Shown here piece after piece: positions 37,558-44,002 of a DNA stretch of 64,000 bases; positions within the stretch are counted from its first letter, which is position 1, and every line of letters begins with the position of its first letter. The notes beneath the pieces are model-generated. The model was not told where the DNA came from. It made no database searches and saw nothing but the letters and a program-made list of their open reading frames with translations. The position numbers and the translations under genes are program-made. Source of the stretch: Candidatus Latescibacterota bacterium (GTDB lineage Bacteria > Latescibacterota > UBA2968); NCBI GenBank assembly GCA_965116885.1, contig OZ220741.1:2688001-2752000 (forward strand). Direction: 5' to 3'.

Positions 37558-37597
37558 AAAAAAGGAGCAATGTCATAGGGGCTTGCTCCTTTTTTTA
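37558..37597. terminator. Bidirectional terminator between convergent genes
   Basis: AAAAAAGGAGCAA...TTGCTCCTTTTTT. Confidence 0.65.
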
Positions 37598-38683
37598 TTC
37601 GATTAAGGCTTCGGAGATGGCGTCGTGAAATTCGGGGCGGAGATGGGCAATTTGGTTGTTCTCGCGGGTGGGGTGTACACGGTTGGTGAGGAGGATGACG
37701 CCGAGGTCTCGTATGGGGTCTCCCCATACGGATGTGCCGGTGAATCCGAGGATGCCGAAGGCTTGTTCGCTAAAGTAACGGCCGCTCGAACTTGCGCCGG
37801 GAGAGACGGTGTCCCAGCCGAGTGCCCAGGTGCTGTTGGGCGCGAGGTTGGCGCGTGTGGTGAATTGTGGAATGCTCCGTTTTGGAAAGATGCCTGTGCC
37901 GAGCCATGCGAGCAGGCATTTCGACAGGTCAGATGCTGTGGAAAACAGGCCAGCGTGGGAGGCGATACCACCCATTGCGGCGGTGTTTTCATCGTGGACT
38001 TCACCGTGTACGAGGTGATCGCGCAAGTCGGAGCCATCTTCCGTGGGCGCAATGCGGTGTTTGAGATGGGGCGGTGGACAGTACAATGTGTCGTTCATTT
38101 TGAGCGGTTCGAATATGTGCTGTTTGGCGAGGTGATCCAGACGATGACCGCCGATGGTTTCGAGGATTTTACCCAGGGTGAGAAAGCCCAGGTCGCTGTA
38201 CACGGTGTCTGTGCCGGGTTCATAAGTTAAGGGGTGTTGGCAGGCTGCGTTGAGCATGGTCTCGCGGGGATCAATCATATTGCGTTGGTTTTCGTACAGG
38301 TGAACATGTGCGGGCAGGCCGCTGCAATGGGCGAGCAGATGCCGAACGGTGACGCGGTCTTTGTTTTTTCCGGTGAATGCGGGGACATAAAATTGCACGG
38401 GTGCGTCGAGGTTGAGGCGATCTTTATCGGTAAATAACATGCAGAGTGTTGTGGTGGCGATGACTTTGGTGACGGAAGCGAGGTCGTAGATGGTATTGAT
38501 TTGTACGGGTGTCGCGTTGGGTTGATAGGTGTGGTGGCCCACAGCCCAGGAGGTGACGATGCCCGTGCGGCGCAGGACGAGGCCGACAGCACCGGGGGTG
38601 GTGCGGGTATGCACATGGCGTTGTAATACTTGACGGGCGCGATCGAGTTTTTGCGAATTAAAACCGATTTGTTCGGGTGTCAT
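37595..38683 (-). CDS. Serine hydrolase, beta-lactamase class C/AmpC-like family
   Basis: YDLASVTK (SxxK), LLAHCSGL, YSDLGF, GEVHDEN, HAGLFS, LTNRVHP. Confidence 0.9.
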   Translation of the reverse strand: MTPEQIGFNSQKLDRARQVLQRHVHTRTTPGAVGLVLRRTGIVTSWAVGHHTYQPNATPVQINTIYDLASVTKVIATTTLCMLFTDKDRLNLDAPVQFYVPAFTGKNKDRVTVRHLLAHCSGLPAHVHLYENQRNMIDPRETMLNAACQHPLTYEPGTDTVYSDLGFLTLGKILETIGGHRLDHLAKQHIFEPLKMNDTLYCPPPHLKHRIAPTEDGSDLRDHLVHGEVHDENTAAMGGIASHAGLFSTASDLSKCLLAWLGTGIFPKRSIPQFTTRANLAPNSTWALGWDTVSPGASSSGRYFSEQAFGILGFTGTSVWGDPIRDLGVILLTNRVHPTRENNQIAHLRPEFHDAISEALIE

Positions 38684-38788: not shown

Positions 38789-39436
38789 ATGAGATATCGA
38801 CATATCTTTGGAGTAGGCGCATTTATCGCTCTGTTTTTTGCGATGTGTATGCCCGCTGAGGGACAGGTGAATGTGGAACGGCTCGAGAGCATTGCGCGAC
38901 ATGTGGCTCGGGCGGTTTTAGCTGAGGGGGATTCTCTAACGGCAGAGCAGGTTGTATGGGTCGAGCGCATGACCGCGCAATTGGCAGAGGATGCGGTGTT
39001 TCTCGACGAGCAAAAACAGCGGTTGGAAGAGGTGCGTCGCGAAAGAGATGCGTCGATTCGGAATATCGCGAGTCAGGTTGCCAAGGGGATTGCTGTTCTG
39101 ATTGCGCTGCTGGTTTTGTGGGGGATTTTCCGTGTTATTAGAAGAGGTGTGAGTGCTGAGTCGGGAAATGATCCTCTGGGGGTGTTGATTGCGATGCGCA
39201 CAGAAGCGCGGGCGCAGAAACTCGGGGAGGCGCTTGTTGAAGAAAATTTGGCGTCGGGCGGAACTGTTGCACCGAGTATCCGTTCAATCTATCGCAGGGA
39301 GGATGGGGTGCGAGAAGCTGCGGAGGCGATGGTTTTTTTGAAGACGACGCGGGCACAATTAAGCGATTTGATTGGTCGCGCAGAGGAATTGGGCGAGGGC
39401 AAGACGCCAGAACTCGTTGTGATACGCGAGGGGTGA
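38789..39436 (+). CDS. Signal peptide + helical ectodomain + TM + C-terminal CutA-like domain (215 aa)
   Basis: C-terminus AQKLGEALVEENLA...PSIRSIYRREDGVREAAEAMVFLKTTRAQLSDLIGRAEEL...PEL follows the CutA1 pattern. Confidence 0.75.
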   Translation: MRYRHIFGVGAFIALFFAMCMPAEGQVNVERLESIARHVARAVLAEGDSLTAEQVVWVERMTAQLAEDAVFLDEQKQRLEEVRRERDASIRNIASQVAKGIAVLIALLVLWGIFRVIRRGVSAESGNDPLGVLIAMRTEARAQKLGEALVEENLASGGTVAPSIRSIYRREDGVREAAEAMVFLKTTRAQLSDLIGRAEELGEGKTPELVVIREG

Positions 39437-39567
39437 GAGGGTTTCACACGAAGACACGAAGACACAAAGATACAAGATGTGAGACGAAAGAGTGTAGGGG
39501 CGGTGTCCCCGTATAAAAGCACTACGGGGCAGGCTCCTGTGCCCACCGGTGAGAGGATACTGATAGT

Positions 39568-40236
39568 ATGTTAAGAGTCTGGATCGTTATTCTGTTGGGG
39601 TTTGTTGCGTCCGCAGCGGCAGAGGAAGATAATGCTTCGCGTATTGCGCGCGAGATGGTTCGCTCGCTGTATGGCTCTGAGCGCGTGAAGCCGTTGCCAC
39701 CTGTGGCGAATGCACAGGTGCGCGCTATTGCGAGAAGGTTGGCTGTGGAGTCGGATGGGCGTTTTCAGCACGCGTTTTTTCAGGAGGATCGCGAGCAGGG
39801 CGCGTTTTTCAGCGGGCTGATGAAGCATGTTATTATCGGGGTGATGATTTGTCTGGTGTTTTTTGTGGTGCATACGGTTGTGCGAAAACTCGATGCGGCG
39901 CGGCGTCTGGGGAAAACGGATCGCGATGTCGCAGTTCAAGGTGGGGTGCGAACTGCGCCTTGTATTCTGGCTCTTCCCATGCCATCTGAAGCGGAGGCAA
40001 GTCGCGTTGGGCACGCGCTTGTTGCCGAGCGGTTGGCTGCGCGGGCAGATGTTTTTTCGCAGTATTTTTTATCGCCGGATCGGGATGAAGGTACTGTGCT
40101 GTTTGTGGTGACTGTAAAAGGCCGCTTGAGGTCACTGAAAAAACGGTTGGGAGATTTGTCTATTTCATTTTCCGTGTCGCATGGACACAGATCTTATTTG
40201 ACGTGGATTGCCGATGCGGCTGATGGGAGAGGGTGA
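39568..40236 (+). CDS. Signal peptide + ectodomain + TM + degenerate CutA-like domain
   Basis: MPSEAEASRVGHALVAERLAA and terminal GHRSYLTWI match the CutA N- and C-terminal motifs. Confidence 0.65.
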   Translation: MLRVWIVILLGFVASAAAEEDNASRIAREMVRSLYGSERVKPLPPVANAQVRAIARRLAVESDGRFQHAFFQEDREQGAFFSGLMKHVIIGVMICLVFFVVHTVVRKLDAARRLGKTDRDVAVQGGVRTAPCILALPMPSEAEASRVGHALVAERLAARADVFSQYFLSPDRDEGTVLFVVTVKGRLRSLKKRLGDLSISFSVSHGHRSYLTWIADAADGRG

Positions 40237-40319
40237 AAGGCGAAAGGTATCCGCAGATGGACGCAGATGGACACAGATGAGAGGATGAAGGGCGGGAGGT
40301 ATTCAGGACATTTTGGGGG

Positions 40320-41054
40320 TTGATCATGCGTGTATTCAGATATGTTCTCTTATTTTTTTTGGCAATAGTTATAATTATTCAATTTGAAACCTGGTTAGAT
40401 ACTTTTTTGCCGGCCGAAATTAGCGACCTGTTCTCAATATTTCTTATGGTTGCTGCTATTTCTATTTTTTGGGGTCGAAAAAATAAATTTCAACGTTGGT
40501 TTGACGACCTGTCGCATCGCATCAATAAAACGTGCGGTCCCCTTTTCCGAAAATTGCGGGTTGCGACCACTGTCATAGGACATATTGTTATTCTGGGATA
40601 TTTGGCTCCCTGGTATTTGCCAGTCTTATTTGGAAGTACGACACCGGGAAATTATATGGGTAAGGCGCGGATCGGACAAGGGGAGGATGAAAAAAGATGG
40701 ACGTGTGTTTATGAATACAAAACACCAAAAGGCGTTTTTGAAGGTCATATTGCCTGGAGCCCACCAGATCCTCCAGAAGATTTAGAGGCTTATTGCAGCA
40801 AACAAATACCCGAATCCATTATCTATTTTCCGCCCAATCCCCAATATCACTATCCCAAGAACAGAAGTCAGCCCATTATGTATAATTATCCAGTAACCCT
40901 GTTCTCTGTTGCGATGCTCGGGGTGAATATCTTTTGGGTTTTTATTCCGCTGTTCAAACAAGGTGCGATTTCAAATGGTGAAGATGTGCGCGAGACGTTT
41001 TGGTGGGCAGTTATCAGTTTAGGATATGTAGGGCTTTATGGCTGGGGTTTCTGA
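40320..41054 (+). CDS. Hypothetical multi-pass membrane protein, AT-richer than its neighbours
   Basis: 244-aa ORF with several hydrophobic segments. No family recognised with confidence. Confidence 0.6.
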   Translation: MIMRVFRYVLLFFLAIVIIIQFETWLDTFLPAEISDLFSIFLMVAAISIFWGRKNKFQRWFDDLSHRINKTCGPLFRKLRVATTVIGHIVILGYLAPWYLPVLFGSTTPGNYMGKARIGQGEDEKRWTCVYEYKTPKGVFEGHIAWSPPDPPEDLEAYCSKQIPESIIYFPPNPQYHYPKNRSQPIMYNYPVTLFSVAMLGVNIFWVFIPLFKQGAISNGEDVRETFWWAVISLGYVGLYGWGF

Positions 41055-41129
41055 CAATCTCAGGTATTTGGGCTTGTATAAGTTTGAAATTTTGATATTT
41101 TAAAAAAGAAAACGGTCTGGCACTCTTCT

Positions 41130-41236
41130 ATGCGAATTATCTTGGATACCAACATTTTTCTGACCGTGGTATCGAGGAACAATTCGGTATTACGCCTGTC
41201 AGCCCTCAGACCTTTCTACATCTTATTGAGGATTAA
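41130..41236 (+). pseudogene. Internally deleted PIN-domain toxin remnant
   Basis: MRIILDTNIFL (PIN N-terminus) joined out of frame to RGIEEQFGITPVSPQTFLHLIED* (PIN C-terminus), immediately before an antitoxin gene. Confidence 0.7.
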
Positions 41237-41241
41237 GAACG

Positions 41242-41478
41242 ATGGGTGCGTTCACTATTCACTTGCCAAATTCACTGCATGACAAAATCGAAGAACTGGC
41301 TAAAGCAGAAGGTTTATCATTTAATCAGTTTATGGTGACTGCTGCTGCTGAAAAAATAGCTGCATTACTTCCAGAGGACTATCTGACTCAAGAGGCGAAA
41401 CAAGGTAAACGGGCGGATTTTGAAAAAGTCTTAAAGGCCGTTCCCCACATTGAACCAGAAGAACAGGACCGGCTCTGA
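41242..41478 (+). CDS. Ribbon-helix-helix antitoxin-like protein
   Basis: FTIHLPNSLHDKIEELAKAEGLSFNQFMVTAAAEK...KVLKAVPHIEPEEQD. Confidence 0.75.
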   Translation: MGAFTIHLPNSLHDKIEELAKAEGLSFNQFMVTAAAEKIAALLPEDYLTQEAKQGKRADFEKVLKAVPHIEPEEQDRL

Positions 41479-41670
41479 ATATATGCCATATTCCTGGCTT
41501 GTACCATCTGTCTCTTGTCTAAATCAGTATAAGAGCGGTGTATAACTTTAACAGAATCCACCCACACGCAACTTGAGCCTGCGCCATCCTATCTATCCTC
41601 TCATCTTCACCCATCCTGTAATATCTCTGCTTGTCCTAAAACTTTTCAATGTTCATAAAGTAGGAAATCT

Positions 41671-42580
41671 ATGTACATTCCAGAAACTCTATCATCCAAT
41701 CCAAAATGGGCTGAATGGATCGAACGGTTGCCAGATATCGTCGCTGCGTGTGCAAAGCGGTGGAATCTTCGCATTGAAGATCCCATGACAGAAGAGTATG
41801 CCGAGATGTCCTATAGTTATATTGCACCAGCGACGGATGCGAAGGGCACAGAGGTTATTTTGAAAATTGGCTCGCCTGTGCAACTGGCGGAAAACTCGCA
41901 GCAAGAGTGCCACGCGCTACAACTTTGCAATGGTAATGGTACGGTCAAGTTGCTCGATTTTGACGAGGCGTTGGGCGTGCTGATGCTCGAGCGCATCCGT
42001 CCAGGTGTGCCTCTGGGTGTTTGTCCGGATGACGAGGAGAATACGCGCATTGCCGCTCGGCTGATGAAAAAGTTCTGGCAACCCGTTCCGAAAGTTCACA
42101 GTTTTCGACCGACGGCGTATGAGATAGATGGTTTTGACAAGTTGCGCAAAAAATACAATGGCGGCACCGGACCGCTGCCCGAAAAATGGGTTGTGCGCGC
42201 CGAAACGCTTTACGATGAGTTGATGAATACGAGTACAGAAACGGTTGTTCTGCACGGGGATTTGCACCACTGGAATATTTTGAGTGCTGAGCGCGAACCC
42301 TATCTCGTCATTGATCCCAAAGGTTATTTTGGCGATCCGGGTTACGAGGTCGGTGCTTTTTTGGCGAATTATCCCGACGCATCCTGTGATGGATGTGACC
42401 GGGGCGAAATCGATGTTCGCCGCGTGGAGATTATGGCCGAAGAATTGGATATTCCGCACGAGCGTATTATCAAATGGGGTTTGGTTCTGGCTTTAATCTG
42501 GGCGAGATGGAGTGCGGATACGCCCGAGGAGTTCTGGCGTACAAGTATTAATCGCCCAGGCGTTGGATCAGTTGCTTTAG
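41671..42580 (+). CDS. Aminoglycoside/hydroxyurea phosphotransferase family kinase (APH(6)-like); probable frameshift near 42553
   Basis: WIERLP...WNL, VILKI, LMLER, LHGDLHHWNIL, IDPKG. A one-base shift gives the ending NRAQALDQLL* at 42580; the ORF track reads on to 42621. Confidence 0.8.
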
Positions 42581-42613
42581 ATGATGTGTCATTCCTAACC
42601 ACAAGGAGATTTT

Positions 42614-44002
42614 ATGTCTAACCGTCCAAATATTCTGATGATTATGTCCGATGAGCACGACCCGGCAGTGATGGGGTGTTATGGCGATTCTATTGTGCAA
42701 ACGCCGCATCTGGACCGACTGGCCGAAGAGGGTATTGTGTTTGATGCGGCTTATACGACGTCACCGCTTTGCGCGCCTGCGCGTGCGAGTTTTACGGCGG
42801 TGCAATACGTGAGTCGCTGTGGGGTGTGGACCAATGATTGTCAGTTGCCTTCTGACGATTATCCTTCGCTGCCCCACGCGCTGAATGCGGTGGGTTATGA
42901 ATGCTGGCTGGGGGGCAAGATGCATTTTGCGGGTGCGCATCGCTATGGTTTTCGCGATGTTTATCCCGGTGCGAATCAAGGGGACAGGAGTGGGAAGGGC
43001 GGGAGGCGCGCGTTTGATGATCTGAGTGAGTCGGGTTTCGGTTGGGAAGGGCGGGTGGCGGCTTTTAAGACGAGTGATACATCGCCCGTTTTGGAAAAGG
43101 ACCGCAAGGTGACGGCGGAGTGCAGTGCGTTTTTGCAAAATCGGTCGGCGGATGATAAGCCATTCTTTTTGCTGGCAGGTTATGTGGCACCGCATTTTCC
43201 GTTGACTATTCCAGAAGAATATTACGCGCCTTACAAAGACAGGGTGCCCATGCCCGAGATTCCCGAGGGCTTTTTGGAGACGCTGCCGACCAATTACAAG
43301 CATTTGAGAGCCGGATTTGGCGTGACAAAGGCGACGCCCGAGCAGACGAAGTTGGGACGGGAGCTTTACTGGGGTTTTGTGAATTGGCTGGACGATGAGA
43401 TTGGCAAGTTGCTCGCCGCACTCAATGATTCCGAAGTGGCGGATAATACGATTGTGATTTACTGTACGGATCACGGCGAGAACAAGGGCGATCACGGATT
43501 GTGGTGGAAAAATAATATGTATGAACACGCTTCGCGGACGCCGCTGATCGTGTCCTTTCCTAAACGCTGGGCAGGTGGGCAACGGCGGACGGGTGTGTGT
43601 TCGCTGGTGGATCTGGCGCAGACGATAGCGGAGATCGGTGGGGCGGAACGGTCAGATGACTGGGATGGCGAGTCGCTGCTCAATTATCTGGACGATGGAA
43701 ATAGCGAGTGGCGGGATATTGCGGTGAGCGAATACTACGCCCACAATATTGCGTCGGGTATGATGATGGTTCGGCAGGGTCCGTGGAAGTACGTGTATCA
43801 CGCGCGGTTTGACGAGGTACATGGACCCGAACGCGAGTTGTACAATTTGGAAGAGGATGCCGGGGAATTTAACAATCTGGCAAATGATCCCGCGCAGGCA
43901 GATCGCATCGCACAATTGCACGATTTGTTGGCGAGGGAATTGAGACGTGATCCCGAAGATGCCGAGGCGCAAAGCCGAGCGGATTTGGCGAAGGGGTATT
44001 AG
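42614..44002 (+). CDS. Cys-type sulfatase (choline-sulfatase-like)
   Basis: RPNILMIMSDEH, CAPAR, GKMHF, TDHGE, WWKNNMYE. Confidence 0.92.
   Translation: MSNRPNILMIMSDEHDPAVMGCYGDSIVQTPHLDRLAEEGIVFDAAYTTSPLCAPARASFTAVQYVSRCGVWTNDCQLPSDDYPSLPHALNAVGYECWLGGKMHFAGAHRYGFRDVYPGANQGDRSGKGGRRAFDDLSESGFGWEGRVAAFKTSDTSPVLEKDRKVTAECSAFLQNRSADDKPFFLLAGYVAPHFPLTIPEEYYAPYKDRVPMPEIPEGFLETLPTNYKHLRAGFGVTKATPEQTKLGRELYWGFVNWLDDEIGKLLAALNDSEVADNTIVIYCTDHGENKGDHGLWWKNNMYEHASRTPLIVSFPKRWAGGQRRTGVCSLVDLAQTIAEIGGAERSDDWDGESLLNYLDDGNSEWRDIAVSEYYAHNIASGMMMVRQGPWKYVYHARFDEVHGPERELYNLEEDAGEFNNLANDPAQADRIAQLHDLLARELRRDPEDAEAQSRADLAKGY

Follow-up and report, generated by a model that had tools for sequence, protein, structure and literature searches.

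Why would a bacterium keep two copies of a CutA-family protein side by side, each of them fixed to a membrane? Known bacterial CutA1 proteins are soluble single domains of ~105-115 amino acids (aa), whereas the two diverged tandem genes that raise this question, here called A and B, encode anchored proteins of 215 and 222 aa with two hydrophobic segments each. Both genes lie in a 64,000-nt window (i.e., the whole stretch of DNA that was analyzed) from an uncultured Candidatus Latescibacterota bacterium (UBA2968; assembly GCA_965116885.1, contig OZ220741.1, positions 2,688,001 to 2,752,000, forward strand). An initial annotation of this DNA had described a tandem pair of membrane-anchored CutA-domain proteins, and that observation is confirmed: A and B are open reading frames (ORFs) on the same strand, exactly where they had been placed. 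As set out below, both proteins belong to CutA1, their membrane anchor was likely taken from the flagellar protein FliF, and the account favored here, with modest confidence, is that they form a membrane-tethered, putatively heteromeric oligomer of CutA type facing the cytoplasm.

Two anchored members of the CutA1 family

Over their C-terminal ~90 aa, A and B share the fold and family of CutA1 as known from E. coli (1NAQ), Thermus thermophilus (1NZA) and human CUTA (2ZFH). Against the Pfam CutA1 profile (PF03091, cut-off 22.4 bits), A scores 49.7 bits (E 3.4e-13) with residues 132-212 aligned to profile positions 3-83 of 99, an early end indicating that the last helix is missing. B scores 22.1 bits (E 1.3e-4; residues 134-216, profile 3-98), 0.3 bits under the cut-off, and is regarded as a degenerate CutA1 member by descent because its orthologues in other genera reach 90.1, 63.1 and 55.7 bits. 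NCBIfam agrees weakly with the assignment. In sequence alignments with structures of the PDB, A corresponds to CutA residues 5-85 without a gap, and B to residues 5-100 with two deletions of ~7 residues. The AlphaFold models likewise have beta-alpha-beta folds of CutA type, with mean per-residue confidence (pLDDT) of 68.5 for A and 73.1 for B, and of 66-86 and 74-94, respectively, within the CutA domains. When these models were compared with the PDB using Foldseek, CutA1 structures or designed CutA1-based cages made up 25/25 of the matches listed for A (e.g., 2zfh, E 5.6e-9; 1naq, root-mean-square deviation 1.2 Å over 88 columns, E 4.7e-8) and 23/23 of those listed for B (e.g., 4e98, E 1e-5; 6gdv, TM-score 0.74, E 5.3e-5). 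The profile check that had been proposed for the two C-termini is thus passed by A and narrowly missed by B, while the structural comparison returns CutA1 for both.

Neither protein carries a complete domain closed by the Y-L-x-W helix, since A is without the last helix, and B has it together with two deletions. With E allowed to reach 10, the Pfam scan gave CutA1 as the sole family, with no match in A or B to PII/GlnB (PF00543) or to the FliF ring domains (PF01514, PF08345), and a search of the ESM Atlas with A gave no usable match. A and B are therefore neither PII proper nor members of the FliF family; they are CutA1 members by profile, fold and descent, departing from the family in length, in anchoring, in truncation (A) and in pocket loss (B). 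The pocket in question lies between subunits in E. coli CutA, where, according to a 2025 paper (PMC12685090), it involves E59, E61 and E90 and is linked to pteridine binding and copper tolerance. The equivalents in A are A177, E179 and E208, so that two of the three glutamates are kept; E179 is found in 30/31 aligned sequences and E208 in 28/31. In B, the loops bearing the equivalents of E61 and E90 are the ones removed by its two deletions. Within the genus, A has accordingly kept pocket glutamates and lost the last helix, and B shows the reverse. The short motifs that had been pointed out earlier are all present (ALVEENLA, SIYRR, E..LKTT and PEL in A; PSEAEA, LVAERLAA and GHRSYLTWI in B), and the Cys of the "LAAC" position is indeed missing from both, which read LASGG (A) and LAARA (B). 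The two proteins are 22% identical to each other (BLASTP, E 0.002).

Both sequences open with a hydrophobic stretch that closes on an AxA-like motif and was interpreted by eye as a signal peptide. A second hydrophobic stretch, at residues ~100-117 of A and ~88-105 of B, has maximum scores of 2.2 and 2.6, respectively, in 19-residue Kyte-Doolittle windows, and is followed by basic residues: RVIRRG in A, and six K/R within the next 15 residues in B. Between the two stretches lie outer segments with IAR-type motifs, SIARHVARAV in A and SRIAREMVRS plus VRAIARRLAV in B, and in each AlphaFold model a single long helix spans outer segment and membrane (residues 52-122 in A, 66-117 in B). ORFs, hydropathy, models and Pfam thus bear out the architecture first noted for both genes, namely a signal peptide, a short helical ectodomain with IAR-like motifs, one transmembrane (TM) helix and a CutA-like domain. 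By hydropathy, and by analogy with the second TM helix (TM2) of FliF, which runs from periplasm to cytoplasm, the C-terminal domains would face the cytoplasm. The features of the locus are collected in Table 1.

Table 1. Features of the cutA locus, in window coordinates
Feature	Position	Strand	Basis
Gene A, membrane-anchored CutA1 paralogue, A-type	38789..39436	+	215 aa; Pfam CutA1, 49.7 bits; 215-aa gene calls in relatives
A residues 1-25, signal-peptide-like N-terminus (MRYRHIFGVGAFIALFFAMCMPAEG)	38789..38863	+	Hydropathy; cleavage inferred by eye
A residues 26-75, putative periplasmic helical stalk with SIARHVARAV motif	38864..39013	+	Model helices 30-45 and 52 onward, pLDDT 41-72
A residues 76-124, FliF-TM2-like juxtamembrane and TM anchor module (TM ~100-117)	39014..39160	+	BLASTP, anchor profile
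A residues 129-213, putatively cytoplasmic CutA1 domain without C-terminal helix; E179 and E208 kept	39173..39427	+	Pfam, PDB alignment, model, Foldseek
A-B spacer, 131 bp, with 8-bp purine-rich tandem repeat at 39446-39475	39437..39567		Sequence
Gene B, membrane-anchored degenerate CutA1 paralogue, B-type	39568..40236	+	222 aa; Pfam, PDB alignment, model, Foldseek
B residues 1-18, signal-peptide-like N-terminus (…FVASAAA/EED)	39568..39621	+	Hydropathy; cleavage inferred by eye
B residues 88-105, TM helix followed by RKLDAARRLGK; diverged from FliF-TM2 type	39829..39882	+	Hydropathy, alignment
B residues 131-219, putatively cytoplasmic CutA-like domain with two ~7-aa deletions; C-terminal helix GHRSYLTWI kept	39958..40224	+	Pfam, PDB alignment, model, Foldseek
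Beta-lactamase-family serine hydrolase, divergent from the cutA locus	37595..38683	-	Pfam PF00144, 198.5 bits

An anchor module resembling the second transmembrane helix of FliF

The initial annotation had recognized the TM helix itself, and its resemblance to FliF had gone unnoticed. Residues 75-124 of A are 54% identical (BLASTP, E 3e-9) to residues 402-448 of a 511-aa protein of a relative, and that protein is FliF (PF01514 at 1.9e-57, plus PF08345). In another genome, G042, the A-type protein is 73% identical to this part of FliF over 48 residues (E 3e-18), and anchor-FliF identities in relatives amount to 73-79% over 42-48 aa. What is shared comprises the juxtamembrane segment, FliF TM2 and its GRGV exit, in the same orientation; the ring-building domains and the FliG-binding tail of FliF are absent from A and B. 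In an alignment of 29 FliFs from the phylum, the CutA anchors resemble TM2 of families f1 and f2, that of f4 is more distant, and those of other classes are unrelated. This specificity points to FliF as the likely source and CutA as the recipient, and the anchor module was thus likely taken from FliF TM2 within the same bacterial order.

In G042, FliF TM2 and the A anchor are identical at 33/42 residues, with identical codons at 9/33 and 84/126 identical nucleotides; because so few codons are identical and synonymous sites are saturated, the similarity is held by selection at the protein level, not by recent gene conversion. The B anchor of the same genome agrees with FliF TM2 at 24/42 residues, and the FliF-TM2 type is still visible in the B-type copies of G042, G044 and G043. 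The notion that A is itself a FliF with an internal deletion was also considered and is unsupported, as the N-terminal stretch of the G042 A-type protein aligns with FliF TM1 at E 0.6, which is not significant.

An anchor profile, A3 (49 positions, 14 sequences, CutA anchors only; cut-off E <= 0.001), found 59 proteins among 1.84 billion representative proteins and, in that search, matched FliFs outside the profile at E 8e-16 and 2.7e-14. Leaving aside three already-known close homologues and one 38-aa fragment, 55 of the 59 were scanned with Pfam: 18 are CutA1, 14 are FliF-type and 23 have no family. The FliF-type carriers include a FliF-TM2-SpoIIE fusion and mini-proteins consisting of the last ring motif and TM2. 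Fifteen of the no-family carriers were inspected, and eight of them are built alike: a signal peptide precedes a beta-rich domain of ~80 aa outside the membrane, after which come the anchor and, in the cytoplasm, a short coiled coil. The module is present in 2-4 copies per flagellated genome, and no flagellar cluster was found around the anchor-module genes. In the window genome, A matches at E 1.3e-20 (it is part of the profile) and no further match is significant; one other is weak (E 0.063), and B is without a match.

Several of these carriers merit separate mention. P0091 (689 aa) has the FliF ring domains and TM2, with the cytoplasmic tail swapped for a SpoIIE/PP2C phosphatase (PF07228, 1.8e-41). 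A mini-FliF of 177 aa in G042 (L128:6939-7469, + strand; G042:C1:5970938-5971468) joins a signal peptide to the last 156 residues of FliF; it retains TM2 and the cytoplasmic tail, preceded by the last portion of the periplasmic region, and is 61% identical to the full FliF of that genome (E 1e-57). The proteins with a coiled coil form a family of 160-190 aa without a Pfam domain (P0070, P0073, P0074, P0075, P0078, P0079, P0099, P0103; also L129:7651-8229, - strand), which occurs in G071, a genome with soluble CutA, as well.

Distribution, descent and selection

Close homologues of A were found at 14 loci (89-96% identity), in metagenome-assembled genomes titled Candidatus Latescibacterota, and some of their NCBI records are already named "divalent-cation tolerance protein CutA". 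The window genome is a single contig of 5.56 Mb, 98% complete, and gene A is its sole PF03091 match, indicating that no ordinary soluble CutA is present there. Across the phylum, A was matched in 65/168 genomes. The matches include the membrane part in the genus of the window, g1 (20/20 relatives and the window genome), and in genera g2, g3, g4, g8, g9, g12 and g13, which together span three families of one Latescibacterota class; a short soluble CutA is found in genera g5, g6, g7, g10 and g11 and in other classes.

Both the fusions and the adjacency of A and B recur in other genomes, as a check proposed at the outset had asked: a B-type gene adjoins A at 28/30 loci, in genera g1, g2, g3, g8, g9 and g12. 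At the two remaining loci the contig is truncated (G066) or B lies elsewhere in the genome (G084), so that A and B are both retained in 21/21 genomes of g1, and the two are co-retained in every examined genome of the six genera. The spacer between them in relatives ranges from overlapping genes up to about 30 bp.

The initial annotation had taken the complementary losses of A and B to suggest a heterotrimer, and such losses are not typical of the family at large. Both copies have complete CutA domains in G042, G044, G043, G037 and G066 (55.7-177 bits), including a P-I-x-x-G-x-x-P-Y-L-x-W helix that is often followed by a basic "PWWKR" tail, and the loss of the last helix from A and the two deletions in B are common to g1, g2 and g3 only. 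The complementary losses are thus a late degeneration, confined to g1-g3 and lying on the long branch that leads to them. A maximum-likelihood tree of 41 CutA domains (backbone unresolved; g13 represented by anchored sequences) unites the A-type domains in one group (support 94/90) and places B of g1-g3 with B of G042 (93/72); the g1-g3 copies of A and of B each sit on a long branch (0.68 and 0.90, respectively, with support of 100/99 for both). The pair is therefore the product of an old duplication, and its two members degenerated side by side in a single sub-lineage. A and B are old paralogues with unequal patterns of degeneration, in keeping with co-assembly.

Purifying selection acts on both genes. 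Computed by the Nei-Gojobori method for the window genes against g1 relatives, at dS values reaching about 1.9, the ratio of nonsynonymous to synonymous substitution (dN/dS) ranges over 0.11-0.25 in A and 0.19-0.32 in B; for the outer segments it is 0.10-0.40 when A and B are taken together and 0.10-0.29 for the A stalk.

A variant of the pair occurs in G037, where the membrane helix of the A-type protein (L045:1426-2388, + strand) is followed by two tandem CutA1 domains, and the B-type protein (L045:2397-3053, + strand) has one.

Possible roles of the pair and its surroundings

In the favored account, a pair of CutA1 paralogues would have become inner-membrane proteins by way of the FliF TM2 module, and A and B would assemble into one membrane-tethered oligomer of CutA type. 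A may provide the surface that binds a small ligand from the cytoplasm, such as the pteridines or metals described for soluble CutA, with B as a structural or regulatory subunit, and the tether would hold this PII-like module at the inner membrane face, to act on a membrane partner. The analysis establishes the fold, the source of the anchor, the paralogy, the conserved tandem, the selection and the lack of flagellar genes; topology, hetero-oligomer, ligand and partner are putative. A heteromer is favored because the two genes are retained together, have parallel long branches and degenerated asymmetrically, and because of the domain arrangement of G037, in which three domains in two chains would match the CutA trimer. 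PII-type regulators provide a functional analogy for the working model: GlnK and SbtB, small trimeric signaling proteins of ferredoxin-like fold, dock on the membrane transporters AmtB and SbtA, respectively, at the cytoplasmic face. They are soluble and dock reversibly via the T-loop, whereas A and B are covalently tethered, have no PF00543 match, and no partner transporter is encoded nearby. SbtB is mentioned in PMC9974498. The CutA family itself also has members with targeting sequences. Mammalian CUTA forms enter the secretory pathway or associate with membranes, and resemble A and B in having an N-terminal targeting extension and a membrane-related role; they are eukaryotic proteins, though, with an unrelated N-terminal extension and with neither a FliF-like helix nor a degenerate tandem partner.

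Several observations weigh against this account. The orientation of both proteins is argued from hydropathy and the FliF analogy; A has no equivalent of E59, nor the Cys and His at the positions that we take to form the copper site of E. coli CutA; A and B of G084 are 3.4 Mb apart; and gene neighborhoods indicate no membrane partner, the neighbors other than a serine hydrolase varying among genera. In genus g13, moreover, a single anchored CutA domain is seen within the retrieved stretches (complete on both sides in G038, ending at a contig end in G039), suggesting that a partner is not required everywhere. This last point, together with the separate loci of G084, the 22% identity of A and B, and the homotrimers that soluble CutA forms in solved structures, would suit a pair without contact, in which A and B build separate tethered homotrimers with roles of their own or B is a nearly inert remnant. 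Such an arrangement is unlikely given the co-retention of both genes in six genera, their parallel long branches and the three domains in G037, and given that B, although without pocket residues, is still under purifying selection. Outright decay is highly improbable: B does fall just short of the Pfam cut-off and A does end before the profile is complete, as pseudogenes or chance ORFs with a weak resemblance to CutA might, but both ORFs are intact in 21/21 genomes, dN/dS is 0.1-0.3 at dS up to about 1.9, and the orthologues of B elsewhere score well above the threshold. Contigs from RNA libraries (runs X1-X4, labeled sponge or coral metagenome), 90-99% alike, also cover parts of A and B; only contigs were available, in which strand and transcription are not resolvable, DNA may be present and gaps in coverage carry no weight, so that they speak against decay weakly. 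One of these contigs, 226 nt long, runs from the end of A into the start of B, with 109 letters replaced by 54 others, a weak hint that the genes are expressed and co-transcribed. Finally, the initial annotation had proposed that the two proteins are paired transmembrane receptors, whose periplasmic segments would detect a signal and relay it to a cytoplasmic PII-like heterotrimer. The purifying selection on the outer segments in g1, the IAR-type motifs common to A and B and the long helix that runs from the outer segment through the membrane in both models are all compatible with this idea. It is very doubtful nonetheless, for the outer segments are short (~50-70 aa, and about 40 aa in G044 and G037), are modeled at low confidence (pLDDT 41-72 in A), hold no Pfam or NCBIfam domain in the region outside the membrane (A 26-95, B 19-85) and cannot be aligned beyond g1-g3, the A stalk being conserved solely within these genera; across the family, conservation lies in the anchor. 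Sensing on the periplasmic side is accordingly unproven.

The anchor invites a further explanation, in which, in flagellated relatives, a helix of FliF-TM2 type would put the CutA pair in or beside the membrane belt of the flagellar MS ring as an accessory, with a PII-like sensor thereby located at the rotor or export gate, leaving a repurposed relic in the genus of the window, which has no flagellum. Much can be said for it. The likeness of the G042 A anchor to FliF TM2 is held by selection at the protein level, the match is to FliFs of f1 and f2 and less to f4, and the module is rare and occurs chiefly, among carriers with a family, in CutA and FliF-type proteins, while the mini-FliF of G042, with its cytoplasmic tail, would be sensible only at the ring. 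FliF is present in 64/168 genomes of the phylum and in 7/8 of the genera with anchored CutA. Matches to FliF, FlhA (FHIPEP) and FliG_C are all absent from the window genome, and FliF is absent from the window genome and all 20 others of g1 (0/21). In 10/10 pairs within this genus, conservation of the anchor falls below that of the CutA domain (e.g., 41% vs 73%), and between FliF-bearing genera the anchor is the better conserved of the two in 18/18 pairs (e.g., 69% vs 34%); out of 40 residues, 17-24 are identical to a FliF TM2 in g1, against 25-33 in the remaining genera. Such a pattern is consistent with weaker constraint on the helix once the flagellum had been lost, albeit in a single loss event. 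An accessory role at the ring is unlikely all the same. The pair is under purifying selection in 21/21 genomes of a genus with no FliF, FliF is also present in 3/5 of the soluble-CutA genera of the same families, and no flagellar gene adjoins the pair in the neighborhoods of compared genera, or the other carriers of the module. Within g3, too, the CutA domain is better conserved than the anchor in 3/3 pairs, so part of the difference between genera may reflect the small alphabet of hydrophobic residues. A broader version would treat the FliF-TM2 helix as a targeting or assembly module, and the CutA pair, the mini-FliF (with its signal peptide, TM2 and FliG-binding-type tail) and the coiled-coil protein as accessory subunits of the MS ring in flagellated Latescibacterota; as a whole, this is quite unlikely. 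Were it true, a small-molecule sensor of PII-like type would, through the CutA pair, be coupled directly to the rotor of the flagellum or to its export gate, and the genus of the window would keep a repurposed, co-degenerated remnant.

With regard to known systems, the initial annotation had found the architecture in none. A search for literature on anchored bacterial CutA or on a link between CutA and FliF found no paper (results on the CutA-FliF link were checked in part), so the claim stands as far as anchoring goes; it does not extend to the proteins themselves, given the homologues that NCBI names CutA. A search for longer proteins with the CutA domain of the G042 A-type protein, with 61 candidates scored, gave six matches, too thin a basis for rarity outside the lineage: three anchored kin, two fusions of Mut7-C/PIN (PF01927) with CutA, and one 229-aa protein. 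The anchored pair is an unusual, not entirely new form of a known family.

Around the pair, orthologues of the divergent serine hydrolase adjoin anchored or soluble cutA at 9/16 fetched loci, an arrangement kept in two families; as the hydrolase also stands beside soluble cutA in g10, old synteny is indicated rather than a link to anchoring. A scan for promoters and terminators gave nothing above shuffled sequences. Purine-rich tandem repeats flank gene B, at 39446-39475 (an 8-mer, 3.8 copies) and 40252-40279 (a 10-mer, 2.8 copies), and many unrelated RNA-library contigs share ~35-50 nt with the DNA at 39494-39544 and 40238-40284. A dispersed repeat at the latter two spots was considered and rejected, the 24-nt core of the first being unique in the genome and the 29-nt core of the second unique in the window. 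Downstream, at 40000-42000, guanine-cytosine (GC) content drops to 0.41-0.47, against ~0.54 on either side. The genes in this part encode a multi-TM orphan without a Pfam domain (40320-41054), a protein resembling HicB/ribbon-helix-helix antitoxins (41242-41478) and an APH(6)-type kinase (41671-42621), and the stretch may be an acquired islet. GC skew on the plus strand is unusually strong in the window (1-64000), with a mean of +0.17 and peaks of ~+0.3 when binned at 4 kb and of 0.37 when binned at 500 bp, and continues through the minus-strand hydrolase gene.

CutA is conserved in all domains of life, and its role is still debated. This lineage provides three natural experiments, as it were, in which CutA has been permanently tethered, duplicated into pocket-bearing and pocket-less copies and, in one genome, fused into a 2+1 arrangement. 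Together they bear on the site at which CutA acts, potentially the inner membrane face, and on the making of a trimer from unlike subunits. An anchor held at up to 79% identity while synonymous sites are saturated implies a sequence-specific contact within the membrane, and the module marks a handful of proteins that may be unrecognized partners of the MS ring.

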